A stretch of DNA of 64,000 nucleotides, from the NCBI GenBank assembly GCA_019308745.1, contig JAFDHO010000001.1, forward strand, positions 13,905 to 77,904, given 5' to 3'. Origin of the DNA: Deltaproteobacteria bacterium (lineage in GTDB: Bacteria; Desulfobacterota; DSM-4660; Desulfatiglandales; HGW-15). Below, one piece after another: positions 1 to 33,331 of the stretch (the stretch's first letter is position 1; each line of letters begins with the position of its first letter). The translations under genes were made by a program, and so were the position numbers. The notes under the pieces are model-generated. The model made no database searches. It was not told the DNA's origin and saw nothing but the letters and a program-made list of their open reading frames with translations.

Positions 1-1
1 G

Positions 2-277
2 CTGGGAATAGCGGATCGTGACTGGATCTGGATCGAATCCCCCAGAGGAAGGGTCAAGCAAAGGTGCAGGCTCTTTGACGGCATTGATCCAAGGGTCGTG
101 CACGCACAGCACGGCTGGTGGTACCCGGAGATGCCCGGGGAAGAGCCCTGGCTCCACGGGGTATGGGAGTCCAACATCAATGTGGTGGTGGACGACGAGC
201 CGGATCACTGCAATGCCATCTCCGGGGGTTGGCCCCTCAGGGCAGGGTTGTGTAGGGTCTACAAGGTCGCGGACTAA
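2..277 (+). CDS. 3' end (91 codons) of a molybdopterin (DMSO-reductase family) oxidoreductase; the 5' part lies upstream of the window
   Basis: Frame 2 is open from the window edge to TAA at 275-277. It reads LGIADRDWIWIESPRGRVKQRCRLFDGIDPRVVHAQHGWWYPE...LRAGLCRVYKVAD, a typical C-terminal molybdopterin-dinucleotide-binding domain ending. It is absent from the ORF track because it has no in-window start codon. Confidence 0.7.
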   Translation: MGIADRDWIWIESPRGRVKQRCRLFDGIDPRVVHAQHGWWYPEMPGEEPWLHGVWESNINVVVDDEPDHCNAISGGWPLRAGLCRVYKVAD

Positions 278-334
278 CCTCTCTCCTGCAGTGTCTTTTG
301 CATCGAACAGCATGGCCCTATTGCATATTTTTCC

Positions 335-380
335 TTGACAAGACCCGCGGAAAATAATAGAAGATATCAAACGATCGTTT
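335..380 (+). promoter_or_regulatory. Promoter plus operator copy 1: TTGACA-N17-TAGAAG, then the palindrome AAACGATCGTTT (369-380)
   Basis: Perfect -35 hexamer at 335-340, 17-bp spacer, and a 12-bp perfect palindrome 5 nt after the -10. The same geometry recurs at four other promoters in this window. Confidence 0.6.
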
Positions 381-548
381 AATGTATCCGCGCTAACCCC
401 AAGAAAATCTTTTGATATCCTACAGATAGGCTAGATTAGTATCCTTAATGTGTTCATTTATTCACAGTAGCCTTTAGGAAGGATCAGATCCCCGAGGATT
501 TTGGAGGGGACCGGAGGTGTTGTTAACCTTTTTGTAAGGGGGAGAAAA

Positions 549-1586
549 ATGAAGAAAGCGTACATCTTTGTCCTTTTGTTTGCCTTTTCAATCTCTTTCA
601 TGGCACTTACGCCGGGCCCAGCAGTCTCAAAGCAAATTGAGTTGAGATTCAATTACTCCATGCCGGCTAAGGTCCCGCCGAGCACTGGCTGGGAATGGTT
701 TGCGCGGGAACTGACGCAACGGAGCGGAGGGAGGGTCAAGGTAACCACCTTTCCGCACGGTGCTCTTTTCAAGATCCGGCAGGCATGGGAAAATACCATT
801 GCAGGCACCGCAGATATCACCAATCTCAGCGTCAGGACCTTTGCCAAACGACTGCCCCTGACCTCGGTGACTATGCTCCCCACCATCTACTGGCCGGACA
901 CGGTGCAGGGGACCGTGGCGAGTGGCAGGGCCATAATGACCCTCTACAAAGAGTTCCCGGAAATCCAAAAGGAATTCAAGGACCTCAAGGTATTGTGCTT
1001 TAACCAGCTGGCCGCCTATCACCTCCTGACCAAGAAGCCCGTTCGCAAGCCCTCTGATCTCAAGGGCATGAAGATCGGGGCCGGCGGGATCATGGGCGAG
1101 TTCATCCAGAGCCAGGGGGGTAGCTTTGTCGCCATCGCACCACCCAAGTCCTATATGTCCCTCAAGACCGGAGTTATAGACGGCATGGCCATGGCCTGGA
1201 GTTCCATGGGGGTTTACAAGCTCTGGGAAGTGGCGGGCTACGTAAATGAAATCACCATCGGCCGCGTTCCCCTCCCGGTGGTCATGAACAAACAGGCTTG
1301 GAATTCCCTGCCCCCTGATCTACAAGACCTGGTTATGAAGCTGGCGGACGAACAAATGGAGTACGGAACCGAGACCCTGTATGATAATCTGGTCAGGCAG
1401 AAGAAGAACATGATCAGAAACGGGGTCGAAGCTTACGTTCCCACCGGGAATGAAGCCAAGGCCTGGATCAATGCCTTTGAACCCCTGGAAACGAGGTGGC
1501 TGGCTGAAAGGGAAAAGCAAGGTCTCAGGGTAGCGCCAAAGGTCCTCATGCGGTACATGGAGCTCGCGTCAAAGGCAGGGGAGTAG
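549..1586 (+). CDS. dctP: TRAP transporter periplasmic solute-binding protein (DctP family)
   Basis: ATG at 549 preceded by GGGGGAG. N-terminal signal peptide MKKAYIFVLLFAFSISFMALTPGPAVS. The length and sequence are DctP-like, and it is followed by DctQ and DctM genes. Confidence 0.85.
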   Translation: MKKAYIFVLLFAFSISFMALTPGPAVSKQIELRFNYSMPAKVPPSTGWEWFARELTQRSGGRVKVTTFPHGALFKIRQAWENTIAGTADITNLSVRTFAKRLPLTSVTMLPTIYWPDTVQGTVASGRAIMTLYKEFPEIQKEFKDLKVLCFNQLAAYHLLTKKPVRKPSDLKGMKIGAGGIMGEFIQSQGGSFVAIAPPKSYMSLKTGVIDGMAMAWSSMGVYKLWEVAGYVNEITIGRVPLPVVMNKQAWNSLPPDLQDLVMKLADEQMEYGTETLYDNLVRQKKNMIRNGVEAYVPTGNEAKAWINAFEPLETRWLAEREKQGLRVAPKVLMRYMELASKAGE

Positions 1587-1632
1587 AGGTACATCCCTCG
1601 CGGATAAGCGGTTCGATTCTCCCGCGGATCGG

Positions 1633-1660
1633 GGGAGGTTTGGGAACCTCCTTTCCTTTC
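1633..1660 (+). terminator. Hairpin plus T-rich tract between dctP and dctQ (possible partial terminator or mRNA stabiliser)
   Basis: GGAGGT (1634-1639) pairs with ACCTCC (1646-1651), followed by TTTCCTTTC. Confidence 0.35.
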
Positions 1661-1760
1661 AAGGATGGAAGGGCCACCTCCCCTTTTCCTTTTTATCGGG
1701 GGGCTTTGGGGTTATTGCCCCCCGGGTTGGCGGAATCCTATTGCAGCTCGGAGAGTAAAG

Positions 1761-2288
1761 ATGGCAGAAGGAGAAACCCGCGCAAAAGGACCATCTGGCG
1801 CTATTGAGAGAGGACTCTACAGGGTAAGCATATGGATCGGTGTCCTCTCGGCCACCGCCCTGTGCCTGATGATGCTCGTCACTGTCGTGGATGTGGGTGG
1901 GCGGTATCTCCTTAACAAGCCCATATACGGGGCCTACGAACTGATCGGGATGCTCCTTGTTGCCGCCGGGCCACTCGGCATGGCCCTCTGCCAAAAGGAT
2001 CGGAAACACATCGTAGTATCCCTCATTGTGGACAAGCTCCCTGCCAGGACCCAGACCCTCATAAATGCCGTCACCCTGTTCCTGAGCTTCTTTACCTACG
2101 GCATCATCACCTGGCAGATGTCCAGACTAACGGTTCAATATTGGATGAGGGGGAGGGGCGGAGTCTCGCCCGACCTGGGCATATCCCTGGCCTACGTCTC
2201 AGTCGTTTTTGCTGTTGGAGCCTTCCTGTTCACTCTCGTGCTCTTGTTGCACTTCGTTCAATCTCTTCGGGGCATGGCAAGGAGGTAA
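1761..2288 (+). CDS. dctQ: TRAP transporter small permease (DctQ family)
   Basis: ATG at 1761 after GGAGAG. About 175 aa with four hydrophobic helices (VSIWIGVLSATALCLMMLVTVVDV...). Lies between the DctP and DctM genes. Confidence 0.8.
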   Translation: MAEGETRAKGPSGAIERGLYRVSIWIGVLSATALCLMMLVTVVDVGGRYLLNKPIYGAYELIGMLLVAAGPLGMALCQKDRKHIVVSLIVDKLPARTQTLINAVTLFLSFFTYGIITWQMSRLTVQYWMRGRGGVSPDLGISLAYVSVVFAVGAFLFTLVLLLHFVQSLRGMARR

Positions 2289-2293
2289 CTGCA

Positions 2294-3592: not shown

Positions 3593-3614
3593 GAAACGGG
3601 GGTCAAAGGGCGTG

Positions 3615-3881
3615 TCAGCCCGCTCTGAGAAAAAGGATTGCGACAGCCGCAGCGATCAGTGCCCCTGGAACCCCAATGAATATCAGGCCCATCCATGCGG
3701 CCCTGGTCTCCATCTCCTTGTAGGAAGCGACGAAATTCTGGCCTGCGAGGGCAAAGAGGGCAAGGGCGCAGGCCCCAAGGGGCCAGGCATACCAGGCAAC
3801 CTCGGTGCCCCCCTGTCGGTCCCACATGAGCAGCCTCATTCCACCCGCCCCGATGAGCAACCCGTACAAAAACCACCACAT
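3615..3881 (-). CDS. rdhB: Reductive dehalogenase membrane anchor protein (RdhB-like, 88 aa, about 3 TM helices)
   Basis: MWWFLYGLLIGAGGMRLLMW... small hydrophobic protein. Its AAAGGAGA RBS overlaps the end of rdhA, giving the classic rdhA-rdhB order. Confidence 0.7.
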   Translation of the reverse strand: MWWFLYGLLIGAGGMRLLMWDRQGGTEVAWYAWPLGACALALFALAGQNFVASYKEMETRAAWMGLIFIGVPGALIAAAVAILFLRAG

Positions 3882-3899
3882 TGCCGTGATATCTCCTTT

Positions 3900-5387
3900 C
3901 TATTCCAACAGGGTCCTTTTCGTGTCGTTGATCCCGTGGGGCGGCATATCCAGCCGCCACCAGGCTTCGAGGTCTCGTTGCCTTTGATATCCGAACACGC
4001 CGTCCATCTTGGTAATAAACCCGTTCACCAGACCCGTAGCGAAGGGGTTTTTCGAGATGGTGGCCTTCACGATCCTATGCATAAAGGACCTGTCCTTCTT
4101 GCTGAAGGGGCAGACGGCAAAACAGGTGGAACACCCCGCCGTCGAAACGGACCACCAGGTCCGGCAAAAAGTAGAGTTCTCATACCACGTCCTGTGCCCG
4201 GGATTGTTCCAGGGCCCTACCGGTTCCCAGAAGGGCTCTGTCTCCAGACTCAATGTCCCCGCAGGGCATTTCTCTGCGCACACCTTGCAGGTCTTACAGA
4301 AACGCAGGATCCCGGCATCGATAGGTTTGGTGGGGGCAAGAGGAAGGTCCGTGACCACCTTGAAGATCCTCTGGAGCGGCCCGTACTCCGGGCTGATCAT
4401 CCTGTTCAGACGGCTCATCTCCCCCAAACCTGCCATGACTCCCAGTGCCGGGGCAATGCCGAGGCCGTTGAACCACATCCCCATGAGCCCCTGGTAGCCC
4501 AGGACATGAAGGAAGGTCTGGAGCCTGTCCATGATGTTTCTGGCCCTCCCATAGGCCGACCCGCTCGCAGAACTTGAAAAGGCAGTGGGTGCCAACCCGG
4601 ATCGCCTTTTGATCAACTCCTCAGACATCTGGAGGGAAAAGACAATCACCCATCGTGCCTTTTCCGGGATTACCCTCTTGTCCTCCGTCTCGTAGGCCTT
4701 GTCAACGCCTTCGAATTCGAGCCGCTTTCCGTCCAGGGCATCCACGGCATATATCAGCTTACGGTGGCGCTCATCGAGCTCCACAAAGCCCACCTGGCTC
4801 GCACCGAAATGCCTGAGGGCTGCCCGTATCATTCTGGAGTTCTCTTCGGGCCTGCCTTCATACCTCGGGATCCCCAGCTCTTCAGGGCTCAGGGGCCTCG
4901 GCCTGGCCGGATCGTGGAGCCTTGAAACGGTCACATCCCTCGTATAGAAGTGCCCCTCCTCCTTTGTCTCGGAGATCGTGTTCGCCCAGGTGCCCAAGAA
5001 GGTAACCGGCACGGAGCCCGACTGTCCGTAAGATATGTCAAGGGCCCGGTCCCTGAGGGTGTATCCCGGCTTGTTATCCAGGATCCACTGTTTGAACTTC
5101 TCCTCCCGTTCCCTGTTGAGTTGCTTTGCCTTTTCCTCACCCACATACCTTCTCCAGGACACCTGCTGGATCTTTGTCGCATCAAACCGCTCCATTCCTT
5201 CCCAATCCACCTCCATGGTCGGCTCATCAACCCAGCTCACCCACCAGGGCCGTCGCCATTCCCCTATGGGAGAAGCCATGACCTCGTCCAGGTCGTGATA
5301 GATCCTGGCCCCGTCCCGTTGATTTCTCTCATCCAGACCCAGGTTCTTCATAGTGGCACGCCCGCTCACTGTGCTGCGCTTCTTCAT
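3900..5387 (-). CDS. rdhA: Reductive dehalogenase homologue (RdhA), corrinoid/Fe-S enzyme
   Basis: N-terminal HDLDEV...RPWWVSWVDEPTMEVDW block typical of RdhA. C-terminal FCKTCKVCAEKCPAG (CxxCxxCxxxCP) and CSTCFAVCPF (CxxCxxxCP) motifs. GGGAGA RBS before ATG at 5387. Confidence 0.85.
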   Translation of the reverse strand: MKKRSTVSGRATMKNLGLDERNQRDGARIYHDLDEVMASPIGEWRRPWWVSWVDEPTMEVDWEGMERFDATKIQQVSWRRYVGEEKAKQLNREREEKFKQWILDNKPGYTLRDRALDISYGQSGSVPVTFLGTWANTISETKEEGHFYTRDVTVSRLHDPARPRPLSPEELGIPRYEGRPEENSRMIRAALRHFGASQVGFVELDERHRKLIYAVDALDGKRLEFEGVDKAYETEDKRVIPEKARWVIVFSLQMSEELIKRRSGLAPTAFSSSASGSAYGRARNIMDRLQTFLHVLGYQGLMGMWFNGLGIAPALGVMAGLGEMSRLNRMISPEYGPLQRIFKVVTDLPLAPTKPIDAGILRFCKTCKVCAEKCPAGTLSLETEPFWEPVGPWNNPGHRTWYENSTFCRTWWSVSTAGCSTCFAVCPFSKKDRSFMHRIVKATISKNPFATGLVNGFITKMDGVFGYQRQRDLEAWWRLDMPPHGINDTKRTLLE

Positions 5388-5477
5388 GATTCTCCCTCAG
5401 CCTCAGAGGTCTTGTGCAAAAGTGCGAAATCTGGTAATTGTTTCAAAAGCTTCCTGAAAAAAGGAGAAACACATTTT

Positions 5478-5521
5478 AATGATCGTTTGTTCCTGATAGC
5501 ATTAACATCCGTTGCTGTCAA
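5478..5521 (-). promoter_or_regulatory. Promoter plus operator copy 2 (minus strand): TTGACA-N17-TATCAG-gaac-AAACGATCATT, upstream of rdhA
   Basis: The reverse complement of 5478-5521 reads TTGACAgcaacggatgttaatgcTATCAGgaacAAACGATCATT. The geometry matches the other four copies. Confidence 0.55.
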
Positions 5522-5701
5522 GGCCAATTTCTTGCCGAAAGGAGACCTGTTCCATCATCGATGCGGTTCCATTCCTGGAGCGACATCGCATGCTTCATCC
5601 TTCGCAGGCAAAGCCTGGCAGCCACAGCCGTTGTGCATTGAGGTGAATGACGTCTCTCATGCCGAGTTACATGTAGTTTTTTATGGTGAAGGCGAATAAA
5701 C

Positions 5702-5745
5702 TTGACAGGATTCCGGGTGGACTATAGAATTTCTAATCGATCGTT
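5702..5745 (+). promoter_or_regulatory. Promoter plus operator copy 3: TTGACA-N17-TAGAAT-ttct-AATCGATCGTT
   Basis: TTGACA at 5702-5707, TAGAAT at 5725-5730, palindrome at 5735-5745. Lies 30 nt upstream of the TTG start at 5776. Confidence 0.6.
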
Positions 5746-5775
5746 CAGTAAATATTTTCCGGCGGTGGAGGTACA

Positions 5776-6549: not shown

Positions 6550-6564
6550 CGGGGAGTCTTCTCT

Positions 6565-7335: not shown

Positions 7336-7460
7336 AAGAATTGACAAACAAAGTTGGAGAAAGATATGTGTGCAAGAAGTGCGGGGCTGAGTTCATAGTG
7401 ACCAAGGGCGGCAAAGGGTCACTCGTGTGTTGTGGCCGGCCCATGGAGATCAAAAAATAG
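7332..7460 (+). CDS. Desulforedoxin-like small metal-binding protein (42 aa)
   Basis: GTG at 7332 overlaps the upstream TGA (GTGA). Reads VKELTNKVGERYVCKKCGAEFIVTKGGKGSLVCCGRPMEIKK, a CxxC...CC pattern with the spacing of desulforedoxin or the Dfx N-domain. Too short for the ORF track. Confidence 0.55.
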   Translation: MKELTNKVGERYVCKKCGAEFIVTKGGKGSLVCCGRPMEIKK

Positions 7461-7509
7461 CCCTAGAAAACAACCCTTTAACGTGACATACTCTTGGAGG
7501 TGTTCGTAC

Positions 7510-7650: not shown

Positions 7651-7717
7651 ACTCCCCGGAATTCCCCTGGCAAGCTTGAGCAAAGTCCTATTGTGTGAGG
7701 GGTGATTATCAAGTCCC

Positions 7718-8374: not shown

Positions 8375-8439
8375 GAGAAATAGCCCGTTGCAGAGAGAGG
8401 GATCCAAGTCTTACTTGGTTGCCCTATAGGATTCGCTTC

Positions 8440-9660: not shown

Positions 9661-9666
9661 GCGACC

Positions 9667-11020: not shown

Positions 11021-11098
11021 GCAAAACCCCGACCGGGCGCTACAGATTTCCAAATGGATTTGCGCATTTCTAGTGAACTGAAACCAGCGAAATTCTTC

Positions 11099-11142
11099 TT
11101 GACAACAAGTGGCGGTGGAAATAGCATTATCAAACGATCGTT
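11099..11142 (+). promoter_or_regulatory. Promoter plus operator copy 4: TTGACA-N17-TAGCAT-tatc-AAACGATCGTT
   Basis: TTGACA at 11099-11104, TAGCAT at 11122-11127, palindrome at 11132-11142. Confidence 0.6.
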
Positions 11143-11299
11143 AGGTCATGTCTTGTTGGGTTCCTCACTAGAATCCGTGGGCTGAAAACTACCTGATGCT
11201 CGCCCTCAAGAGGGTTGGGATGTCTTTTCGGAGTGACTGCTGGGAGGCGCCTGAGGCGCTTTGGGAATTGTAAGTTCTTTTTGAAGCTTGGAGGGAGCA

Positions 11300-12628
11300 A
11301 TGAAGGAGTGGAAGGCCGAATTCGAGAAAAAGTTGATCACGGCCGAGGAGGCCGCCAAACTGGTCAAGCCGGGTGACAGGGTGTCCTTTACCCTCGGCCG
11401 CGAAGCCTTTTCCATAGGGTTGGCCATTGCCGCCCGCATAGGGGAGCTGCGTGATGTGAAGGTATTTCAACCCTTTCCGGGTTATGACTTCGGCTGGTAC
11501 GATGCAGGCTGGGAAGAGTTCTTCCAAATAAGCATCCTGATGCCCACGGCGGTCTCCCAACAGATGATAGATGAAAGGAGGGGCGACATCGAAGTCAATG
11601 ACATCCTGTGCTGGAGCGAGAGCACACTGTGTCAATCCGATGTCGTGATAACCGAGGTCTCCCCGCCGGACGAAAAGGGGTTCTGCAGTTTTGGGGCGGC
11701 GCTGTGGAACAAGAGAAAACACATCAAACAGGGAAAACTTGTTCTTGCAGAGATCAATGACCGGCTCATAAGGACCTTCGGTGATAACTTTGTCCACGTC
11801 TCCGAGATCGACTATTTTGTCCCTCACCAGGAATCGGGCGGAGTGGCATCCAGCGGCAGTCTGGGGGGCAGGGAAAAGAAGGAACCGGCCCAGTACATGA
11901 AGGATATCACCCGCCACGTCTCCGGCCTGATAGGAGACGGGGACACGGTGCAGATCGGCATCGGGAGGGTCTCGGAACGACTCGTGGAACTCGGCCTGTT
12001 CGATGGAAGATCCGATATCGGCTGGTACTCCGAAGCCACGCCGCCGGGCGTGATCAAGCTCGTGCGGGAAGGCGTGATCAACGGCAGGAAGAAGAATTTC
12101 TTCCCCGGTAAAGTGATTGTAACCACCCTGGGTGGGGCAACAAAAGACGATATGGACTGGGCCAGCAACAACCCCCTCTTTTGGCTGGCCGATGTGGACT
12201 TTCTCTGGGATGTGAGGAATATCTCCGCAAATGATAATATGGTGGCCATCAACCAGGCCCTCACCGTAGATCTCTCCGGTCAGGTATCTGCCGAAAGCAT
12301 CGGGCACAAGATATTCAGCAGTGCAGGAGGGCAGACGGCATTTGCCTACGGCGCCCTCCTCTCCAAGGATGGAAGGGGAATTACCGTACTGCCCTCCACC
12401 GCTAAGACGAGGGACGGAAAATTGACTTCAAGGATCGTCCCCGCCCTCGAGCCCGGTACCGCCGTCACCGTCCCCCGTAACTGCGTTGACCACGTGGTCA
12501 CGGAATATGGCATCGCAAGACTCAGGGGCAAATCCCTTCGTCATCGGTGCGAGGAGCTTATCGCCGTGGCCCATCCCGACTTCAGAGAGGAACTCCGCGA
12601 CTCCGCCAGAAGGCTCTACTGGCCCTGA
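11300..12628 (+). CDS. Acetyl-CoA hydrolase/transferase family protein (4-hydroxybutyrate CoA-transferase-like)
   Basis: ATG at 11300 after GGAGGGA. ITAEEAAKLVKPGDRVSF N-terminus and SSAGGQTAFAYGA (GGQ.DF..GA-type) block. Confidence 0.8.
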   Translation: MKEWKAEFEKKLITAEEAAKLVKPGDRVSFTLGREAFSIGLAIAARIGELRDVKVFQPFPGYDFGWYDAGWEEFFQISILMPTAVSQQMIDERRGDIEVNDILCWSESTLCQSDVVITEVSPPDEKGFCSFGAALWNKRKHIKQGKLVLAEINDRLIRTFGDNFVHVSEIDYFVPHQESGGVASSGSLGGREKKEPAQYMKDITRHVSGLIGDGDTVQIGIGRVSERLVELGLFDGRSDIGWYSEATPPGVIKLVREGVINGRKKNFFPGKVIVTTLGGATKDDMDWASNNPLFWLADVDFLWDVRNISANDNMVAINQALTVDLSGQVSAESIGHKIFSSAGGQTAFAYGALLSKDGRGITVLPSTAKTRDGKLTSRIVPALEPGTAVTVPRNCVDHVVTEYGIARLRGKSLRHRCEELIAVAHPDFREELRDSARRLYWP

Positions 12629-12650
12629 CAGTTCTTGCATTTTTCCGTGA

Positions 12651-15969: not shown

Positions 15970-16014
15970 TTGACAACATATCGCCGCGCCAATAATATGA
16001 ACAAACGATCGTTT
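15970..16014 (+). promoter_or_regulatory. Promoter plus operator copy 5: TTGACA-N17-TAATAT-gaac-AAACGATCGTTT
   Basis: TTGACA at 15970-15975, TAATAT at 15993-15998, perfect 12-bp palindrome at 16003-16014. Lies 15 nt before ATG 16029. Confidence 0.65.
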
Positions 16015-16028: not shown

Positions 16029-18389
16029 ATGAACGGAACCATGAAGACAGAACCCGGAATAAACAGACTCCTGGAACCCTTTGAAGTCCTGGACCTGACA
16101 GATGAAAAGGGAAGTTTCTGTCCCTACATCCTGAGTCACCTGGGGGCCTCTGTCACTCGCTTGGAGAGCAGGGAACCCAAGAGGGATTTCTGGTGGTGGG
16201 CCTATGACAGTCAAAAGAAGAGGCTCGAGGTCGATATTGAAAGAGAACAGGACAAGGCCCTCTCACTTGTGAGAAGGGCGGATTTTCTGGTTGAGTCTTT
16301 TCCTCCCGGGCATATGGACAGAATTGGCCTGGGATATTCTGCCTTGAAGGAACTCAATCCCCGACTCATCTACACCTCCATTACCCCTTACGGACAAACA
16401 GGCCCCTACAAGGACTATAAGGCCTCTGATCTTGAGATCATGGCCATGTCTGGCGTCATGTATGTCCTCGGGGATCCGGATCGCCCTCCCGTGAGAATCA
16501 GTTTCCCCCAGTCCTATCTCTTGACTTCGGCGATAGCCGCCGTGGGGACCCTGATTGCCCACCATTGGAGGGAGACGACCGGTCAGGGGCAACATGTGGA
16601 TGTCTCCGCTCAGGAAAGCCTTTATGATGTGCTCATGCAGGCCCCCTATTATTACAAATGGTTTGGAAACGACCCCGCCAGGACCGGGCCCTATAGACTT
16701 GGTGTCTCTGGCGGAATCTTTCTCCACCCCATGATCTGGAAATGCCGGGACGGGCACGTCGCGTACATGATGCAGGGCGGAAAGCTGGGGGCCTATTCAA
16801 ACAGCACCCTGGCGAGGTACATCGAGGAGGAAGGGATCCTGCCGGATCATGTCCGCCAGATCCGGTGGGAAGAACTGGACATGGCCCAGATGACCCAGGA
16901 GAAGATGGAGGAGATCTGGAAGCCCTTTGCCGATTTTTTTTTACGCCACACCGTTGAGGAAATCTACCGGATTGCCCTAAAGGAGCGCATTCAGCTCTTC
17001 CCCGTGAATACGGTCAGGGACATCATCCATGACGAGCAGCTCGAGGCCCGCGAGTACTGGGTTTTCAAGGACATCCGTGAGCTTGGAAAGGAGCTCAAGT
17101 TCCCGGGCCGCCTGGCTAAGTTATCATTTCCTGATCAAGGGGGTGAGAGCGGGGAAAGAGCCGGCCCCAATGAAAGCCCTGAAAGACCCCCCTTTGAAGG
17201 CCTCAAGATTGCTGATTTTTCATGGGTCGCAGCCGGTCCTTGGGTCACCACGTGGCTGGAAGGTTATGGCGCCGAGGTCGTCAAGGTTGAATCCATAAAC
17301 CGTCTGGACGCGACCCGGGTCTCGGGACCTTACTTGGACAACAGGCCCGGCCCCGATCGTTCGGGGATGTTTCTTGTGTTCAACGGAGCGAAAAAGAGCC
17401 TTACCCTCAATCTCAATACTCCGGGCGGAAGAGAAATCGCACGCAAATTGGTCAAGTGGGCGGATGTGGTGGTTGAGAGCTTTGCCCCGGGACAGATGCG
17501 CAGATGGGGTTTGAACTACGAGGAGCTTTGCAAGTTAAACCCCAAGCTCATCATGCTGAGCGCATCCATGATGGGTGCGACAGGACCCCACGCGGAACAG
17601 CCCGGGCTGGGACTCCAGTTAACCTCCCTTGCGGGGTTTACCTACCTGACCGGATGGCCCGATAGGGACCCCCCTTATATATGGGGCGCCTACACGGACA
17701 TTCCTGCCTCCAGAATAGGGGCCAGTGCCCTTCTGGCGGTCCTTGATTACTACCGACGGAGCGGAAAGCCATGCTATATCGACCTTTCCCAGTATGAGGC
17801 CAGCCTCCATTTCCTTTCGCCCCTGATCCTTGAATTCCAGGCAACCGGTAATCCAGGCAACAGGATGGGAAACCGTTCCCCTATTGCATCTCCCCACGGC
17901 GTATTCCCCTGCAAGGGAAAGGACCGATGGTGCGCAATATCCGTGTTTAGCGAAGAGGAGTGGCAGGCCCTTTGCCAGGCCATGGGCACACCGGAAACGG
18001 CGACAAACACCCTCTTTTCGACCTTCGAGAAGAGGAAAGAGAATGAAGATGCCCTTGAAGATCTTATTGCATCGTGGACAAGGGGACGTCCGCCTGAGGA
18101 TGTAATGACCCTTCTTCAAGATGCCGGAGTCAACGCCGGTGTCGTGAAGACCAGTGGAGATCTCTTTGCTGATCCCCAGTTTAAACACCGGCGCCACTTC
18201 ATCCCCGTGTCCCATCCTGAAGTGGGAGATTACGAGTACTTCTGTCCCGGTTTCAGGCTGGCCAAGGTCCCTATTAGGGCCGGGAGGGCCCCGTGCCTGG
18301 GAGAACACAACGAATACGTGTGCACCAAGATACTCGGACTGACCGACGATGAGTTTATCGAATATCTCACGTCCGGGGCCCTGGAGTAG
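16029..18389 (+). CDS. Tandem-fused double family-III CoA-transferase (786 aa)
   Basis: Two complete signatures. The first is FEVLDLTDEKGSFCPYILSHLGASVTRLES at the N-terminus. The second is LKIADFSWVAAGPWVTTWLEGYGAEVVKVES near nt 17200. They are joined by a Pro/Glu/Gly-rich linker (DQGGESGERAGPNESPERPP). Confidence 0.8.
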   Translation: MNGTMKTEPGINRLLEPFEVLDLTDEKGSFCPYILSHLGASVTRLESREPKRDFWWWAYDSQKKRLEVDIEREQDKALSLVRRADFLVESFPPGHMDRIGLGYSALKELNPRLIYTSITPYGQTGPYKDYKASDLEIMAMSGVMYVLGDPDRPPVRISFPQSYLLTSAIAAVGTLIAHHWRETTGQGQHVDVSAQESLYDVLMQAPYYYKWFGNDPARTGPYRLGVSGGIFLHPMIWKCRDGHVAYMMQGGKLGAYSNSTLARYIEEEGILPDHVRQIRWEELDMAQMTQEKMEEIWKPFADFFLRHTVEEIYRIALKERIQLFPVNTVRDIIHDEQLEAREYWVFKDIRELGKELKFPGRLAKLSFPDQGGESGERAGPNESPERPPFEGLKIADFSWVAAGPWVTTWLEGYGAEVVKVESINRLDATRVSGPYLDNRPGPDRSGMFLVFNGAKKSLTLNLNTPGGREIARKLVKWADVVVESFAPGQMRRWGLNYEELCKLNPKLIMLSASMMGATGPHAEQPGLGLQLTSLAGFTYLTGWPDRDPPYIWGAYTDIPASRIGASALLAVLDYYRRSGKPCYIDLSQYEASLHFLSPLILEFQATGNPGNRMGNRSPIASPHGVFPCKGKDRWCAISVFSEEEWQALCQAMGTPETATNTLFSTFEKRKENEDALEDLIASWTRGRPPEDVMTLLQDAGVNAGVVKTSGDLFADPQFKHRRHFIPVSHPEVGDYEYFCPGFRLAKVPIRAGRAPCLGEHNEYVCTKILGLTDDEFIEYLTSGALE

Positions 18390-18579: not shown

Positions 18580-20097
18580 ATGAAGACGATGGAAAAGGAT
18601 ATTTCCAGTATGCGCAGTTCCCTGGAGTTCTTAAAGGCAGAAGGCGACGTCATGGAAATCAAAGAGGAAGCGGATCCGATCCTCGAGATCTCAGCGATCA
18701 CCAAGTCTTTCGATGGAGGCCCGGTCCTTCTCTTTGATAAGGTGAAAGGCTACCCCGGCGTGAGGGACGTGTCCAATGTCATGGCCAACGAGAGTATCTA
18801 CCCGAAACTTTTTGATGCATCAAATGACAAAGAGATGATGCGTCGTGCCCACCACGCCTTGCTCAATCCCATTCCTCCCAGGGTGGTTGAAGAGGCGCCC
18901 GCGCAAGAGGTGGTGATCAAGGAGGATATCGACGTCTTCAGCACCTTGCCCATTCTGCTTCATACGGAAGAGGATGCCGGAAGGATCCTGGGTGGCCTCA
19001 ATGTCCTCATTTCCGGCAAGTACTTCGATGGCGGGCATGAGATATCCTTCAAACGGACCCACTTCCAGGATCGGGATTGGGGAACCATCATGGCGGGCGA
19101 TTCAACCCACATCGGAAAGATAATCAAGAGGTTCAGGCCAGAACCCATACCGGTGACCCTCAATCTCTGCACGCCGCCGGCGGTTCTCCTGGCTGCCGGA
19201 GGGACCTATCTCCACGCCATGATTCCCTTTGGATCCGATGAACTGGGTTTTGCAGGAGGCCTCCAGGGATATCCCGTGGATATCGTCAAGGCCAAGACGG
19301 TCGATGCCTATGCCGTTGCCCAGGCCGAGTGGGTGGTGGAGGGATACATCGAGACGGCCCCTACCCATTGGGAGAGTGAAAAGGCCGCCCAGGCAGGCAA
19401 GTGGGAGGTTGCCCCGTTCTTCCCCGAGTATACCGGCTACCTTGGTGGCTCCGTCAAGACAAGCGGCTTCAAGGTTACTGCCATCACGCACAGGGAGGAC
19501 CGTCCGATCTTCTACTCTCCCCTTGCCCACTCCTTCGAAGGAGAGAACCTGATGCGTCCCTTCCGTGCAGCGTCCATGTATGAGTGGGCCCGCCGGATCA
19601 CGGATCCCGCATTCATTGCCGACGTCAACGTACTCCAGGGGCAAAAGGGACTCCTCGGGGTTGTTTTCCAGGTGAGCAAGTCCAAACCCAGGTTCGAGGG
19701 ATACCAAAAGACGCTCCTGTACAATATCCTGACCCTCCCCGAGGCGCCTCAGGTCGGTATTGCGGTCGATGAAGATGTGGACATCTATTGCGCCGAGGAC
19801 GTCATCTGGGCCATGACCACGAGGGTCAACCCGGAAACCGGGATTGTCAGGGGCTGGGGTGACAGGCACAGGCAGGGGAATCCCATGGAAGACCTCTCCC
19901 AAATAAGCGGCCTCCAGGGGTTTTACGGCATAGACGCCACAGTCCCCTTTGATCACCCGTTGAAAATGGTCTTCAGGCAGGGGAAATACCCCGTGGATAA
20001 GATTGACCTAAAGAAGTGGTTCACAGAAGAGCAGATCCATGCAGCCAGGAGTCGCCAGTGTGAATATGCCAAGGTTATCGCAAAACGAGGTTCCTGA
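18580..20097 (+). CDS. UbiD-family (prenyl-FMN dependent) decarboxylase
   Basis: 505 aa. The N-terminus MRSSLEFLKAEGDVMEIKEEADPILEISAI...VLLFDKVKGYPG is typical of UbiD-like carboxy-lyases. Confidence 0.8.
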   Translation: MKTMEKDISSMRSSLEFLKAEGDVMEIKEEADPILEISAITKSFDGGPVLLFDKVKGYPGVRDVSNVMANESIYPKLFDASNDKEMMRRAHHALLNPIPPRVVEEAPAQEVVIKEDIDVFSTLPILLHTEEDAGRILGGLNVLISGKYFDGGHEISFKRTHFQDRDWGTIMAGDSTHIGKIIKRFRPEPIPVTLNLCTPPAVLLAAGGTYLHAMIPFGSDELGFAGGLQGYPVDIVKAKTVDAYAVAQAEWVVEGYIETAPTHWESEKAAQAGKWEVAPFFPEYTGYLGGSVKTSGFKVTAITHREDRPIFYSPLAHSFEGENLMRPFRAASMYEWARRITDPAFIADVNVLQGQKGLLGVVFQVSKSKPRFEGYQKTLLYNILTLPEAPQVGIAVDEDVDIYCAEDVIWAMTTRVNPETGIVRGWGDRHRQGNPMEDLSQISGLQGFYGIDATVPFDHPLKMVFRQGKYPVDKIDLKKWFTEEQIHAARSRQCEYAKVIAKRGS

Positions 20098-20308: not shown

Positions 20309-20476
20309 ATGACTAACGCCAAGAAAGCAGAGATGATGGTCAGGTGTAAGAACTGCATAAAGCGGTTTGAAGTGAAGCCCAAGGCGGACAAGGCAAAATG
20401 CCCCCATTGTGGCGTGGAGTACCGCATATCCTGGCCGAAACCCGACCTGCCCTACATCAGGGGACTGGCCAAATAG
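20309..20476 (+). CDS. Small zinc-ribbon protein (55 aa)
   Basis: MTNAKKAEMMVRCKNCIKRFEV...KCPHCGVEYRI has two CxxC knuckles. ATG at 20309 after AAAGGGGGA. Confidence 0.5.
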   Translation: MTNAKKAEMMVRCKNCIKRFEVKPKADKAKCPHCGVEYRISWPKPDLPYIRGLAK

Positions 20477-22393: not shown

Positions 22394-22410
22394 GAGCGAG
22401 GAAAGCGACG

Positions 22411-23243: not shown

Positions 23244-23828
23244 ATGAGAGAGATCAGGATACACGGCAGGGGCGGACAGGGAGCAGTAACAGCCGGTGAC
23301 ATGATCGTTACCGCGGCCGTGCTTGAGGGCAAATACGGCACCAGCTTTCCCCTTTACGGGGATGCAAGACGGGGCGCTCCGGTTGTGACCTTCCTGGCCA
23401 TCAACGATGCACGGATAAGGCAAAAGACCAAGGTCTACAATCCCGATTGCCTCATCGTGCTCGACCCCCGCCAATACAAATGGCCTCAAACCTATGATGG
23501 TATCAAGCCGGGTGGGGTCCTTATACTGAACTACGGGGATGAGCTTGAAGAGCAACCGCACCCCTGCATACAACGCGCCGGTGCGGTGGACGCCACGAAA
23601 ATAGCCATGGAAGAGATCGGCATCCCTGCCTTCAATACCTGTGTTCTGGGGGCATTTGCCGCCACGACGGGGTGGGTCAAGCTTGATGCGGTCATCTACG
23701 CAATAGAGAAGAGCTTCTCGGGGGAGCTTGCGGCCAAGAACATCACGACGGCGGAAAGGGGCTACCGGGAGGTGAGGATCCGGGAGTGGGCCCTGAAGGA
23801 CAATACTATGAACCAAAGAGGAGCATAA
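23244..23828 (+). CDS. 2-oxoacid:ferredoxin oxidoreductase, gamma subunit
   Basis: IRIHGRGGQGAVTAGDMI signature, and the gene order is gamma-delta-alpha-beta. Confidence 0.85.
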   Translation: MREIRIHGRGGQGAVTAGDMIVTAAVLEGKYGTSFPLYGDARRGAPVVTFLAINDARIRQKTKVYNPDCLIVLDPRQYKWPQTYDGIKPGGVLILNYGDELEEQPHPCIQRAGAVDATKIAMEEIGIPAFNTCVLGAFAATTGWVKLDAVIYAIEKSFSGELAAKNITTAERGYREVRIREWALKDNTMNQRGA

Positions 23829-24100
23829 TGGAGTTTCGGAGCAAATACGAGAATTCCTGGTTCAAGGCGGGGGAAACCCTGGGAAGGCCGGTGAGCGGTT
23901 GGCGATACACCCGGCCCTACCTGGACAGGGATAAATGCAATCGCTGCGGCTGGTGTTACCTCTATTGCCCGGGCGGATGTATCCAGGTACAAGAGGACCT
24001 TTATGTCATAGATTTCGACTTTTGCAAAGGATGCGGAATCTGCGCCAACGAATGTCCCAAGAAGGCCATAACCATGGTGAATGAGGAACAGGAACAATGA
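23828..24100 (+). CDS. 2-oxoacid:ferredoxin oxidoreductase, delta (2x[4Fe-4S]) subunit
   Basis: ATG overlaps the upstream TAA (TAATG). Contains CNRCGWCYLYCP and CKGCGICANECP. Confidence 0.85.
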   Translation: MEFRSKYENSWFKAGETLGRPVSGWRYTRPYLDRDKCNRCGWCYLYCPGGCIQVQEDLYVIDFDFCKGCGICANECPKKAITMVNEEQEQ

Positions 24101-25320
24101 GCGTTGCCCGTGAAATGAAAAGGAATATAGAGGTATGTGATGGTAACAAGGCAGTGGCCTACGGGGTCTTACTCAGCCGACCCGACGTGGTGGCCGTGTA
24201 TCCCATCACTCCCCAGTCCGCAGTGGGTGAATGGCTCTCCCGCTGGTATGATGAGGGGAAGCTGGACGCTGAAGTGGTCCGCGTGGAGGGTGAAAATTCC
24301 TCCATGGGCGTCTGCTGTTCGGCCTCCTTGACAGGAGGGAGAGTCTTTACCGCCACGTCATCTTGGGGACTCCTCTTCATGACCGACGGGCTTCATTACG
24401 CAGCCGGCTATCGCATCCCCGTTGTCATGACCAATGCCAATCGGGAGACCCCGGGAATCTTCACCATCGGCAACAGTTCTCAGGACATGTGGTCCATGAG
24501 GGACACCGGATGGGTGCAAATCAACGTGGAAGACAACCAGGAGATTCTCGACTCCGTGATAATGGCCTACAGGATAGCAGAAGATCCCGAGATCCTCCTC
24601 CCTGTCATGGTCTGCTATGACGGCTTCTACCTCTCCTATCGAAAGGATCCCCTGGAGATACCCGAGCAGGACCTCGTGGACAAGTTTCTGGCCCCCCTGG
24701 GAAAATCCAGGAGGATGGTCATCACGCCTGATGATCCCATGATCTTTGGCGTGCCGAGTTTCTTCCCCCAGGACCAGGGAGAAGGTTGCACCGAGTTTCG
24801 GTACAAGCATAGCGCCGCCCTCGAGAGGGTCAAGGACAAGATCGACAAGGTGGACAGGGACTTTGGAGGCATTTTTGGCAGGAGTTACGGCGGCCAGGTA
24901 GAGGGATACAGGACCCGGGACGTCGAAACGGTCCTGGTAGCCACCGGCAGTTGCGTGGGAACTGCAAAGGTGGTCGTGGACCAGATGAGAGAGGAAGGCC
25001 ATAAGGTCGGGCTTATCAAGGTGAAGTTGTTGAGGCCCTTCCCCAAGGAAAGACTGGCGCAGGCCCTGAAAGGGAAAAAGGCCGTAGGGGTCATTGACCG
25101 AAGTGTCTGTTTCGGATACCATTGCGGGCACCTCTACATGGAGACGAAGGCCGCCATCGCTTTTGGCTCCATCCCACCCGACGTGCCGACGCTGAATTTT
25201 ATAGGTGGTCTTGCCAACCTGGATATTTCATCCGATCACATCAGGAGGGCGATAGACCTTACAAACGCCGCATCCCGCGGGGAGGTTTTCAAGGAAGTTA
25301 CCTGGCTCTCCCTTGAGTAG
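24097..25320 (+). CDS. 2-oxoacid:ferredoxin oxidoreductase, alpha subunit
   Basis: GNKAVAYGVLLSRPDVVAVYPITPQS N-terminus, 407 aa, ATGA overlap with the delta subunit gene. Confidence 0.85.
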   Translation: MSVAREMKRNIEVCDGNKAVAYGVLLSRPDVVAVYPITPQSAVGEWLSRWYDEGKLDAEVVRVEGENSSMGVCCSASLTGGRVFTATSSWGLLFMTDGLHYAAGYRIPVVMTNANRETPGIFTIGNSSQDMWSMRDTGWVQINVEDNQEILDSVIMAYRIAEDPEILLPVMVCYDGFYLSYRKDPLEIPEQDLVDKFLAPLGKSRRMVITPDDPMIFGVPSFFPQDQGEGCTEFRYKHSAALERVKDKIDKVDRDFGGIFGRSYGGQVEGYRTRDVETVLVATGSCVGTAKVVVDQMREEGHKVGLIKVKLLRPFPKERLAQALKGKKAVGVIDRSVCFGYHCGHLYMETKAAIAFGSIPPDVPTLNFIGGLANLDISSDHIRRAIDLTNAASRGEVFKEVTWLSLE

Positions 25321-25347
25321 GGGATAGGCCCATTGAGAGGGTAAACC

Positions 25348-26235
25348 ATGAAAGGTGTTGCCAAACGCATAGCCAGCCATTTCAAGGAGGATCTGTTGGC
25401 CTCGGCGACGTCCCTGTGCCCCGGATGCCCGGCCGAACTCGCCGCAAGAGTCATGCTCAGGGTGCTGGGGAGAAATGTCATTACCTTCCGCACGCCCGGT
25501 TGCCAGCCCATTTTCATGACCAGGGTTGCCGGTATACCCTGCTTGATGACCAACATAGCATCGAGCATGACCGGTGCCAGCAGGTACCTCCGAAAGACGG
25601 GCAGAGAGGATGTCATATGTGTCTGCTTTGTGGGAGATGGGGCCACCGCAGATGTGGGTTTCCAGCCCCTTTCGGGGGCCGCCGCCAGAGGGGAGCATAT
25701 CCTCTACATATGCAATGACAACGAAGGATACATGAACACGGGTATACAGTGCAGTAGTGTGACTCCCCAGGGTTCCTGGACGAGCACCACCTGGATAGGG
25801 GAAAAGAGCCGCGGGAAGAGCAACGAAGGCAAATACATGCCCCTGATCATGCTCATGCACGGGGTGTCCTACGTGGCAACCGCGACCATGGCCTACTATG
25901 AAGATTACGTCCTCAAGCTGGAGAAGGCAAAAGAAGCGGTAAAGCGCGGTATGGCCTACATCCACCTCCACACCCCCTGTGCCACGGGGTGGAGGGCTCC
26001 CGTTGAAAAGGGGATAGAGATGAGCCGCCTGGCCGTTCAGACCAACTATTTTCCCCTCTGGGAGGCGGAAGATGGCAGGTTACGGTTGACCCACCGCGTC
26101 AAGAGACCCAATCCCCTCAAGGATCTTCTCAAGATGCAAAAGAGGTTTTCCCACATCACGGACCGGGAGCTGGAAGCATTACAACAAACCATTGATAAAC
26201 GACTGGCCCTTCTAGAAAGACTGGCTGAAGATTAG
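25348..26235 (+). CDS. 2-oxoacid:ferredoxin oxidoreductase, beta (TPP-binding) subunit
   Basis: CPGCPAELAAR and GDGATADVGFQ TPP-binding blocks. Confidence 0.85.
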   Translation: MKGVAKRIASHFKEDLLASATSLCPGCPAELAARVMLRVLGRNVITFRTPGCQPIFMTRVAGIPCLMTNIASSMTGASRYLRKTGREDVICVCFVGDGATADVGFQPLSGAAARGEHILYICNDNEGYMNTGIQCSSVTPQGSWTSTTWIGEKSRGKSNEGKYMPLIMLMHGVSYVATATMAYYEDYVLKLEKAKEAVKRGMAYIHLHTPCATGWRAPVEKGIEMSRLAVQTNYFPLWEAEDGRLRLTHRVKRPNPLKDLLKMQKRFSHITDRELEALQQTIDKRLALLERLAED

Positions 26236-26265
26236 GTCGTAGTGGGCCGCAGGGGGTTCCGCGGA

Positions 26266-29513: not shown

Positions 29514-29578
29514 CCTCTTTGGCTCTGGATCCCAAGGACAGGCGCCCAAGAGCCTTTTGATCATGGAGGATAGCGAAT

Positions 29579-32194: not shown

Positions 32195-32198
32195 AGCA

Positions 32199-32225
32199 CC
32201 CCGTGCTTCTGCACGGGGCATTTTG
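32199..32225 (+). terminator. Intrinsic terminator
   Basis: CCCCGTGC (32199-32206), TTCT loop, GCACGGGG (32211-32218), followed by CATTTTGG. Lies 5 nt after the stop codon. Confidence 0.65.
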
Positions 32226-32299
32226 GCGATGGCGAGTGACTTCCGGAGCGTCTTTTTACACCCGGACCCGACTTTGTCTCGTGAGGAAAGGAGGCACTA

Positions 32300-33331
32300 A
32301 TGACCTTTAAGGTGGTAAATACCTTTGTTATTCCCGAAATCGATTACGGTGACAGCCTGCTGGACTCCGTGGACGCTGACATTGAAAGAGGCCTGTGGAC
32401 TGCCGAGGAAGACCTCATTTCCCATTGTCAAGACGCGGACGCGATCATATGTACGAGTCCCGCACAGGAATGGTCTGAAAAGGTCCTGGACTCTCTCGTC
32501 AGGTGCCGCATCATTGCAACCACGTCCATCGGGTATGACCGCATCCCCTTGGAGCCGGCCACGGAAAGGGCAATTGCGGTCACCAATATCCCCGATTACT
32601 GCGTGGACGAGGTCTCGAGCCAGGCTATCGCCCTCATGATGGCCCTGGCCCGAAAACTCTTTCCCCTGGACAGGGATGTCAGGGAGAGGCAAACTCATTT
32701 CACGCCTGGAAATAGGGAAGCAGTCAGGGATATTCTCCACCCCATCCTTAGGACCCGGGATCAGGTCCTGGGAATAATCGGATTTGGGAAGATAGGCACT
32801 GCCGTGGCCCTCAAGGCAAAAGGGATAGGCATGAGGGTCATTGCTTACGACCCTTACGTGTTTGGTGCCGTCATGCAGACTCACGGAGTCCAGCCTGTGG
32901 ACCTGGACACCCTCCTGAGAGATTCGGACATCATCAGTATCAATGCCAATCTCACAAGTGAAACCCGGCACATGATTGACGAGGAGGCCTTCAAGAAGAT
33001 GAAGCCCACCTGCTACCTCGTCAATACCGCAAGGGGTGGAATCGTTGACCAGGACGCCCTGATCAGGGCGCTTCAAGAAGGGATGATCGCCGGGGCCGGG
33101 CTTGACGTGCTTGCCGTTGAGCCTGTTCCGGCACAAGATCCCCTCCTCAGGATGCCCAATGTCATTCTCACGGGGCACTCTGCCTGGTACTCCACGGCCT
33201 CCGACTCCGAAGCCGAATACTGGCACAAGGCCATGGGTCAGGTCATCATGGCCCTGAAGGGCCGCTTTCCCACCTATACCGTCAATCCGGAAGTGAAAAA
33301 AGAGTGGCTCACAAAATGGGGAACGACTTGA
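32300..33331 (+). CDS. D-isomer-specific 2-hydroxyacid dehydrogenase (NAD-binding)
   Basis: GIIGFGKIGTAVALKAKGIGMRVIAYDP Rossmann motif, NTARGGIVDQDAL, LDVLAVEP and LTGHSAW catalytic-His region. Confidence 0.85.
   Translation: MTFKVVNTFVIPEIDYGDSLLDSVDADIERGLWTAEEDLISHCQDADAIICTSPAQEWSEKVLDSLVRCRIIATTSIGYDRIPLEPATERAIAVTNIPDYCVDEVSSQAIALMMALARKLFPLDRDVRERQTHFTPGNREAVRDILHPILRTRDQVLGIIGFGKIGTAVALKAKGIGMRVIAYDPYVFGAVMQTHGVQPVDLDTLLRDSDIISINANLTSETRHMIDEEAFKKMKPTCYLVNTARGGIVDQDALIRALQEGMIAGAGLDVLAVEPVPAQDPLLRMPNVILTGHSAWYSTASDSEAEYWHKAMGQVIMALKGRFPTYTVNPEVKKEWLTKWGTT

Follow-up and report, generated by a model that had tools for sequence, protein, structure and literature searches.

A candidate regulon for anaerobic aromatic-acid degradation joining phthalate-type and phenylacetate-type enzymes in a deltaproteobacterial genome

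In this study, the gene content, control and conservation of a catabolic gene island were investigated in a 64,000-nucleotide stretch of a Deltaproteobacteria bacterium (Desulfatiglandales; GenBank assembly GCA_019308745.1, contig JAFDHO010000001.1, positions 13,905 to 77,904), hereafter called the window, which has a G+C content of about 55%. We observed that the island, whose genes lie mostly on the + strand at positions 1-33331, joins a CoA-transferase and a UbiD-family decarboxylase resembling those of anaerobic phthalate degradation to oxidoreductases recalling the anaerobic phenylacetate (Pad) pathway. With moderate confidence, and on sequence comparison, we read the region as a catabolic regulon that is controlled by a repressor and serves the use of an aromatic carboxylic or dicarboxylic acid, the most likely endpoint of the pathway being a benzoyl-CoA-type thioester. 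Every component belongs to a familiar enzyme class, and it is the combination that is undescribed: a preliminary description, made from the DNA letters, could match it to no known pathway, and literature searches for this gene combination likewise found no description. The candidate anaerobic aromatic or dicarboxylic-acid degradation island proposed there is supported, and the gene types it listed were all recovered at their positions by Pfam, NCBIfam and PDB searches of the window proteins, from which the gene identities given below are taken.

The evidence starts with a gene for a fused two-domain family-III CoA-transferase (16029..18389, +; two CoA_transf_3 domains in Pfam), which ends 190 bp upstream of a gene for a UbiD-family, prenyl-FMN (prFMN)-dependent decarboxylase (18580..20097, +; assigned by Pfam, PDB and tree). 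The phthalate cluster on plasmid 2 of Aromatoleum aromaticum EbN1 has the order ubiX, pcd (phthaloyl-CoA decarboxylase, PCD), the CoA-transferase genes RS22145 and RS22140, and a TAXI-type tripartite ATP-independent periplasmic (TRAP) transporter. In the fused transferase, the N-terminal half shares 38% identity with RS22145 and the C-terminal half 43% with RS22140, the order being the same (311 and 221 bits by BLAST), and the predicted protein resembles a fusion of these two enzymes; the unfused CoA-transferase pair of the window (8440-10854) shows only 32-33% identity to them. BbsE and BbsF are the nearest solved structures to the two halves (231 and 135 bits by HMMER), and the fused enzyme appears closer to the phthalate pair than to BbsEF, a rough comparison because BLAST and HMMER bits differ in method. 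The UbiD protein matches PCD end to end at 280 bits, with the next structures at 136 bits, and shares 32-33% identity with each of the two EbN1 PCD copies. The 112 UbiD proteins of the fetched loci were placed in a neighbour-joining tree, built without support values, in which the window UbiD clade (both locus types described below) is sister to the clade with the EbN1 PCDs, and the two lie within one superclade, with about 80 other UbiDs outside; the outgroup was formed by loci from a UbiD profile scan of genome contigs, of which the best listed locus was 44% identical. Closest characterised homologues of aromatic type, on which the preliminary description had made its reading depend, were found in the EbN1 phthalate-cluster transferases and PCD, with PadG and PadI, as shown next, closest or nearly so.

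A small conserved Zn-ribbon protein (20309..20476, +; open reading frame, ORF), a W-type aldehyde:ferredoxin oxidoreductase (AOR; 20504-22393, +; Pfam and PDB) and a polyferredoxin (22411-22917, +) follow the decarboxylase gene. The AOR gives 261 bits to AFOR_N and 386 bits to AFOR_C in Pfam and is an AOR proper, matching the Pyrococcus furiosus AOR (1aor) at 412 bits and FOR at 320; with BamB at 248 bits, a BamB-type benzoyl-CoA reductase was ruled out. The four-subunit 2-oxoacid:ferredoxin oxidoreductase behind it (OFOR; gamma, delta, alpha and beta, 23244..26235, +) leans towards phenylglyoxylate dehydrogenase, as PadI is the top NCBIfam model for the beta subunit (301 bits) and PadG comes second for the alpha subunit, with 370 bits vs 383 for PorA. 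None of the Pad models reaches its cutoff (score/cutoff: PadE 159/300, PadF 77/150, PadG 370/700, PadI 301/700), and the beta subunit covers positions 148-438 of the PadI profile only, without the PadI ferredoxin domain. A closer view is offered by a related locus, L093, whose OFOR alpha subunit is 77% identical to that of the window and whose gene run consists of gamma, delta, alpha, a 417-residue flavin adenine dinucleotide (FAD) protein and a 429-residue beta subunit with an N-terminal ferredoxin domain. This FAD protein matches PadH end to end at 342 bits (cutoff 475; next model 163), and the beta subunit matches full-length PadI at 420 bits (cutoff 700; next model 288). By these profile matches, the L093 OFOR has the padEFGHI layout of phenylglyoxylate dehydrogenase with all five subunits, at scores below the equivalog cutoffs.

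The OFOR genes are followed by genes for two molybdenum- or tungsten-bis(pyranopterin guanine dinucleotide) (Mo/W-bisPGD) enzymes, Mo1 (26266-28869, +) and Mo2 (29579-32194, +), with a four-cluster iron-sulfur (FeS) subunit between them (28869-29513, +), and a D-2-hydroxyacid dehydrogenase gene (32300..33331, +) is the last of the operon. The label of Mo/W hydroxylase-type enzymes used in the preliminary description proved loose, the proteins being cytoplasmic members of the DMSO-reductase family. Mo1 and Mo2 are paralogous, with 41% identity over their full length, and in both the Fe-S cysteines of the N-terminus are kept, as is a Cys where ArrA has its Mo ligand. Neither of the inspected N-termini carries a twin-arginine translocation (Tat) signal, in keeping with enzymes that act on a CoA ester in the cytoplasm. 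PadBCD reportedly comprises, after Rhee and Fuchs in 1999, a catalytic subunit, an FeS subunit and an NrfD anchor, and faces the cytoplasm. Mo2 occupies the position that this anchor holds in relatives (NrfD at 16909-17784 of L002 and 2621-3511 of L114) and is also found in L001; Mo2 in place of the anchor implies a soluble complex with two catalytic subunits.

Mo1 is weakly like ArrA, PsrA and PhsA, mainly over its N-terminal 260 or so residues, and the FeS subunit is weakly like ArrB and DsrO. With these as the nearest structures and models, a Cys ligand position as in ArrA, and several paralogues in unrelated contexts in the same genome type, Mo1-FeS with NrfD or Mo2 might be taken for a respiratory or electron-sink reductase of the polysulfide, thiosulfate or arsenate type rather than a Pad-like enzyme, the rest of the module working without it. 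We consider this rather improbable: the matches to the C-terminal part are weak and the scores far below the cutoffs, while Mo1-FeS remains linked to UbiD and OFOR in both gene orders found among relatives. Respiratory reductases of these types are typically exported to the periplasm, and Mo1 and Mo2 have no Tat signal. A 45% identical homologue was named padB2 by the submitter of a metagenome-assembled genome (MAG), which is a lead only. Paralogues of Mo1 on the long contigs L004 and L005 sit in unrelated contexts, so that membership of this Mo family is not enough to diagnose the module. Two plasmid matches tried as PadB were uninformative, that of Azoarcus KH32C lying in an arsenic-type Mo-enzyme cluster and that of Sporomusa in an unrelated NrfD/FeS/Mo cluster.

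Neighbourhoods of relatives were collected by exact-protein look-ups and a metagenome scan and compared by tblastn with the full set of window proteins. Homologues of UbiD are numerous; nearly all are metagenomic, and the few named ones are MAGs labelled Deltaproteobacteria, Desulfobacterales, Desulfatiglandales or Chloroflexi. In a first type of locus, with UbiD 74-93% identical to that of the window, the order is fused CoA-transferase, UbiD, Zn-ribbon, AOR, ferredoxin, OFOR, Mo1 and FeS, seen in L001, L002 and L093 and, up to the contig ends, in L089, L092, L094 and L096. Zn-ribbon and AOR genes are present in all seven type 1 loci with sequence downstream of UbiD, the Zn-ribbon copies being 63-84% identical and in the same position (L001, L002, L089, L092, L093, L094 and L096), and OFOR and Mo1 are present in all three that extend far enough. 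In L002, UbiX and an LpdD-type chaperone are encoded just upstream of the module, and L088 carries, upstream of the fused CoA-transferase and UbiD, a 77% identical homologue of the acetyl-CoA-transferase-family gene at 11288-12628. A second type of locus, with UbiD 44-46% identical, holds the same families rearranged as Mo1, FeS, NrfD, OFOR, AOR, ferredoxin, in some cases ThiS, then UbiD, a single CoA-transferase and a PaaK-family ligase; L114 has this order in full, L098-L100, L105, L108, L111 and L112 have part of it, and in L115 and L116 Mo1-FeS stands directly before UbiD. That the same families are kept despite rearrangement and deep divergence indicates a joint function. The synteny on which the preliminary description had made its reading depend is shown, in two gene orders, for 16-32 kb and for the gene at 11288-12628, and not for the TRAP, rdhA and enoyl-CoA hydratase (ECH) units. 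The ligase adjoining the module in L114 scores 233 bits against a cutoff of 646 and does not discriminate between pathways, because isophthalate-CoA ligase is also of the PaaK family (PMC9516798).

In two type 1 loci, the transferase and UbiD genes are separated by a gene for an ADP-forming acyl-CoA synthetase (L094, 3134-5284; L096, 7366-9567), and this insertion hints at ATP formation from the pathway thioester. These loci lend something to a fermentative oxidation of arylacetates or aryl aldehydes, in which AOR, the Mo enzyme and OFOR would turn arylacetaldehyde or arylacetate into aroyl-CoA, the CoA would be passed to the next arylacetate by the transferase, or ATP would be made by the ADP-forming synthetase, and UbiD would decarboxylate the released free acid, for example hydroxybenzoate or indole-3-carboxylate. 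The constant presence of AOR and the Pad-like OFOR agrees with such a scheme, as does VdcC being the best NCBIfam model for UbiD (188 bits), a score far under its cutoff of 650. We regard it as quite improbable, as the characterised UbiD that comes nearest, by a wide margin, is PCD, whose substrate is a CoA ester, and the tight pairing of transferase and UbiD in phthalate-like order mirrors an activate-then-decarboxylate logic.

In two other relatives, L003 (1-13361) and L090 (1224-13857), UbiD is 50-59% identical and the neighbour genes are different. UbiD is paired with a second UbiD and an AMP ligase in L003, a separate pair of UbiD and AMP ligase lies a few kb away in L090, and the neighbours of these loci include Amidohydro_2 decarboxylase-type proteins, a xanthine-dehydrogenase-type Mo enzyme, hydantoinase A/B and a phenylphosphate-carboxylase gamma subunit. 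These varied neighbours suggest that the UbiD superclade serves several aromatic-type clusters.

The control of the island is the second line of evidence. A 12-bp palindrome, AAACGATCGTTT, occurs seven times in the window at no more than two mismatches, vs 1.34 expected, and no shuffle reached seven. Five of the seven sites are intergenic, each just after a sigma-70-like TTGACA/-10 promoter, and align in one layout of cTTGACAa, about 17 nt, a -10-like hexamer, 5-6 nt and then the palindrome. The first promoter-operator (320..380, operator 369-380, +) lies ahead of dctP; a divergent pair between rdhA and the ECH operon (5427..5746, both strands) holds the operator for rdhA at 5477-5488 (-) and that for the ECH operon at 5735-5746 (+); the fourth (11083..11143, operator 11132-11143, +) precedes the acetyl-CoA-transferase-like gene, and the fifth (15970..16014, operator 16003-16014, +) the fused CoA-transferase operon. 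Promoter 5, TTGACA, 17 nt and TAATAT, agrees with the consensus in 10 of 12 positions and is the best promoter-like match in the scanned region of 14.5-34.4 kb, and the same promoter-operator is present ahead of the orthologous fused CoA-transferase gene in L001. With this promoter before 16029 and, after 33331, the best terminator-like hairpin found (33450..33469, +; 3' of the last gene), a 17.3-kb operon spanning 16029-33331 is delimited, its limits being at the level of consensus matches.

Placement of the operator at the transcription start is classic for repressors, from which we infer repressor control; no regulator gene was identified in the window. The five promoters sharing AAACGATCGTTT bear out the wiring of the island and RdhA to one operator noted in the preliminary description and support the predicted co-expression of these genes, so that the TRAP genes, rdhA-rdhB, the ECH/CoA-transferase operon, the acetyl-CoA-transferase-like gene and the long operon are supported as one putative regulon. 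The TRAP, rdhA and ECH units are linked to the core module by the operator only.

On these data, a pathway can be proposed in which the TRAP system would import the aromatic acid, the fused CoA-transferase would activate one carboxyl group with CoA taken from a donor that is probably succinyl-CoA, and the PCD-like, prFMN-dependent UbiD would take the second carboxyl off the CoA ester; the UbiX making prFMN would have to be encoded elsewhere in the genome. AOR and ferredoxin would oxidise an aldehyde precursor to the acid, Mo1-FeS, possibly with Mo2, would convert the methylene group of an arylacetyl-CoA to a 2-oxo acid (arylglyoxylate) in the manner of PadBCD, and the PadEFGI-like OFOR would yield aroyl-CoA and CO2, so that AOR, Mo1-FeS(-Mo2) and OFOR would supply the same thioester pool from side-chain precursors, in analogy to the Pad route. 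The acetyl-CoA-transferase-family enzyme (11288-12628) could regenerate the CoA donor, and RdhA/RdhB could strip halogen substituents. The steps may form one linear pathway or several converging routes, both being open to the sequence data. We give only a small chance to the linear version, in which a ring-carboxylated arylacetate or aryl aldehyde, for example of homophthalate type and perhaps halogenated, would pass through a phthaloyl-CoA-type ester to benzoyl-CoA. Here intracellular RdhA would remove the halogen, the soluble Mo1-FeS-Mo2 complex with its two catalytic subunits would oxidise the alpha carbon, the Pad-like OFOR would yield the phthaloyl-CoA-type intermediate, and the PCD-like UbiD would decarboxylate that to benzoyl-CoA.

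Several observations weigh against the aromatic reading and should be set beside it. No protein of the module reaches an NCBIfam equivalog cutoff. As no family-specific threshold was reached, no substrate is assigned, just as the preliminary description had held that none could be at substrate level, and the proteins are not filed as SptAB, PCD or Pad orthologues. The UbiD shares only 33% identity with PCD and branches next to the PCD clade, not within it, in a tree that carries no support values, and a tblastn search with EbN1 UbiX gave no match in the 64-kb window; this and the lack of any benzoyl-CoA reductase domain among the window proteins agree with the earlier account of the region. 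The window likewise has no PaaK-type ligase, and the PaaK-family ligase of L114 could be of isophthalate type and not a phenylacetate ligase. PadH is missing from the four-subunit OFOR of the window, there is no NrfD anchor in the window, and Mo1 is likened to PadB by subunit architecture alone, not by PadB sequence. RdhA, TRAP and ECH genes were not found by tblastn beside the module in the other loci examined.

Two further points of this kind, the aliphatic character of the best NCBIfam matches of the CoA-transferases (mesaconate, glutarate and oxalate transferases) and the genes upstream of the module in L088 (the 2-hydroxyacyl-CoA-dehydratase-family HGD-D, MaoC, methylmalonyl-CoA mutase and family-I CoA-transferase), lead to another explanation, that the module degrades or ferments aliphatic unsaturated dicarboxylates of the glutaconate, mesaconate or itaconate type. 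The CoA-transferase would then activate the acid, UbiD would decarboxylate an alpha,beta-unsaturated acyl-CoA, OFOR would be an ordinary pyruvate or 2-oxoisovalerate enzyme and AOR would act on aliphatic aldehydes. In its favour, PorA and VorB score about as high as the Pad models for the window OFOR, the regulon includes two crotonases and a butyryl-CoA:acetate-transferase-like gene, and UbiD enzymes are known to act on acrylic acids as well (PMC8379154). We nevertheless judge this explanation unlikely. The transferase matches to aliphatic models are all far below cutoff, whereas direct comparison puts the fused enzyme closer to the phthalate-cluster pair, and UbiD is much nearer to PCD than to any other solved UbiD. 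Moreover, PadH and PadI of L093 are specific to phenylglyoxylate dehydrogenase, and the neighbours of the distant relatives L003 and L090 are of aromatic type (Amidohydro_2, phenylphosphate-carboxylase gamma, xanthine-dehydrogenase-type).

With regard to the other units of the putative regulon, the DctPQM-type TRAP system is complete, its binding protein and its small and large membrane subunits being encoded in three adjacent genes: dctP (549-1586, +; PF03480, with a signal peptide), dctQ (1761-2288, +; PF04290) and dctM (2294-3592, +; PF06808). The reductive dehalogenase gene rdhA (3900..5387, -) is assigned by TIGR02486 at 279 bits, above the cutoff of 160, and directly downstream of it lies an ORF for an rdhB-like membrane anchor of 88 aa (3615..3881, -) with three helices and an E-x-E motif, of which an identical gene in contig L129 matches Pfam VcrB, so that both the enzyme and its anchor are present. 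PceA is the nearest structure to RdhA (134 bits vs 65 for NpRdhA), and a catabolic dehalogenase of the NpRdhA/BhbA type is unsupported. No Tat signal was seen on RdhA, its N-terminus MKKRSTVSGRATMKNLGLDERNQ having neither an RRxFLK motif nor a hydrophobic stretch. A catabolic operator at the rdhA promoter suggests that dehalogenation is tied to carbon catabolism.

The ECH operon opens with two enoyl-CoA hydratase genes (ECH1, 5776-6549; ECH2, 6565-7335; both +, Pfam), for which a role as a benzoyl-CoA-pathway hydratase or hydrolase was considered and generic crotonase models alone appeared among the matches listed. Then follow two mini-ORFs of 39 and 46 aa (7341-7460 and 7510-7650, +; gene calls in L129), a gene without known function (7979-8374, +; gene calls in L129) and the unfused family-III CoA-transferase pair, BbsE-like (8440-9660, +) and BbsF-like (9667-10854, +), both from Pfam and PDB, with a match to PDB 9fn0_A at 200 bits. 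The mini-ORFs carry the rubredoxin-like N-terminal domain of Desulfoferrodoxin (Desulfoferrodoxin_N) in tandem inside this operon. The acetyl-CoA hydrolase/transferase-family CoA-transferase gene (11288..12628, +; PF13336) stands behind its own operator and is followed by an Amidohydro_3 gene (-), a ThiS/MoaD-like gene (14814-15089, +) and a ThiF/MoeB-like gene (15136-15879, +), the last two assigned by Pfam and NCBIfam and likely to be sulfur-transfer helpers for the pterin cofactor. Tandem small ORFs of 70 and 91 aa (14577-15089, +) lie ahead of the ThiF/MoeB gene, and the 91-aa ThiS/MoaD-like product ends in GDG, not the usual GG. Among the relatives, L001 has a ThiS gene ahead of the module and L098-L100 have one within it.

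At the left edge, the preliminary description had expected the island to continue upstream, which was not what we found. The edge gene (2..274, +) is a C-terminal remnant of a Mo-bisPGD gene, with the Molydop_binding domain (PF01568) only. Contig L129 (JGI 3300033141), 99.92% identical to positions 1-15387 of the window and reaching 6.1 kb further left, carries it as an ORF of 202 aa that matches residues 538-742 only of a 745-aa homologue, and upstream of it come three tiny ORFs, two aminotransferases, a diaminopimelate (DAP)-dehydrogenase-like gene and a peptide-binding protein. With a C-terminal remnant followed by amino-acid metabolism genes, the island ends about 1.4 kb left of the window, and the edge gene is, by its predicted product, a boundary mark and not a working enzyme gene. 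The remnant and tiny ORFs (15111-16404 of L129) resemble a rearrangement or insertion scar at the island boundary.

Beyond the island, a three-subunit xanthine-dehydrogenase-family enzyme (42216-46040, -), whose large subunit matches the alpha subunit of 4-hydroxybenzoyl-CoA reductase (Hcr) best (719 bits, cutoff 994), adjoins an aryl-acid AMP ligase, the two together covering 40372-46040 (-), and they were counted for the aromatic affinity of the region; no AAACGATCGTTT operator site lies at 40372-46040. An arylsulfotransferase gene (ASST; 35946-37178, -), located between the island and the Hcr-like genes, likewise points to the metabolism of phenolic compounds. Genes of cobalamin biosynthesis (48309-59171, -), among them CobD/CbiB, CbiG, CbiD, CbiC, CobQ/CbiA-type amidases and methylases, form a run on the same contig as the corrinoid-dependent rdhA.

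Anaerobic phthalate degradation is usually regarded as a recent response to plastics. Here, two signature enzyme types of phthalate degradation sit in a larger module with phenylacetate-pathway-like enzymes, a module kept in two gene orders, with identities as low as about 45%, in uncultured sediment bacteria, and this conservation points to a natural aromatic substrate class consumed by these abundant organisms. The Tat-less RdhA in the same putative regulon hints at a dehalogenation that can work for carbon catabolism and not for respiration. If the linear pathway were true, it would mean a natural, widespread source of phthaloyl-CoA-type compounds in anoxic sediments and an evolutionary origin for 'xenobiotic' phthalate degradation. 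As a concrete gene set, the module makes the natural origin of phthalate-type chemistry testable.

Comparison with known systems places the island between several of them. BbsEF, with its E-type and F-type subunits, is the nearest solved structure for both the fused halves and the unfused pair; benzylsuccinate synthase and the bbs beta-oxidation genes, in contrast, are not present here. The isophthalate pathway of Syntrophorhabdus aromaticivorans uses a PaaK-family isophthalate-CoA ligase and a UbiD-type isophthalyl-CoA decarboxylase (PMC9516798), and L114, L003 and L090 similarly pair a superclade UbiD with an AMP-forming or PaaK-family ligase, whereas the window uses a CoA-transferase. The anaerobic phenylalanine/phenylacetate (Pad) pathway of Thauera, Azoarcus and Aromatoleum differs from the window in several ways: the window is without PadH, the PadI ferredoxin domain, a PaaK-type ligase (PadJ) and a membrane anchor, Mo2 standing in place of the last, no Pad model score comes up to its equivalog cutoff, and Mo1 is compared by architecture and not by PadB sequence; Pad clusters, in turn, lack UbiD and family-III CoA-transferase (PMC5109826), both of which are in the window. 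What the two share is the W-type AOR with its polyferredoxin, a Mo-bisPGD enzyme with a four-cluster FeS subunit (and NrfD in relatives), and a POR-type OFOR with a PadI-best beta subunit, up to the complete padEFGHI order in L093 (PMC5109826). Pad-like genes have also been annotated in single-cell genomes of marine Dehalococcoidia (PMC4959651). Known anaerobic phthalate clusters are limited to PCD, UbiX, a transporter and either a transferase or a ligase (PMC13040137). From the o-phthalate pathway of denitrifiers such as EbN1, which has a succinyl-CoA:phthalate CoA-transferase, PCD, UbiX and a TAXI-TRAP transporter, the window departs in its fused transferase, a UbiD in the sister clade, the absence of UbiX, a TRAP system of DctPQM rather than TAXI type, and the embedding of the pair among AOR, OFOR and Mo enzymes. 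It nevertheless shares with that pathway a two-part family-III CoA-transferase directly beside UbiD, the order of the transferase parts and a TRAP-type uptake system in the same unit (PMC13040137), and in these two enzymes the EbN1 proteins are the closest characterised relatives.

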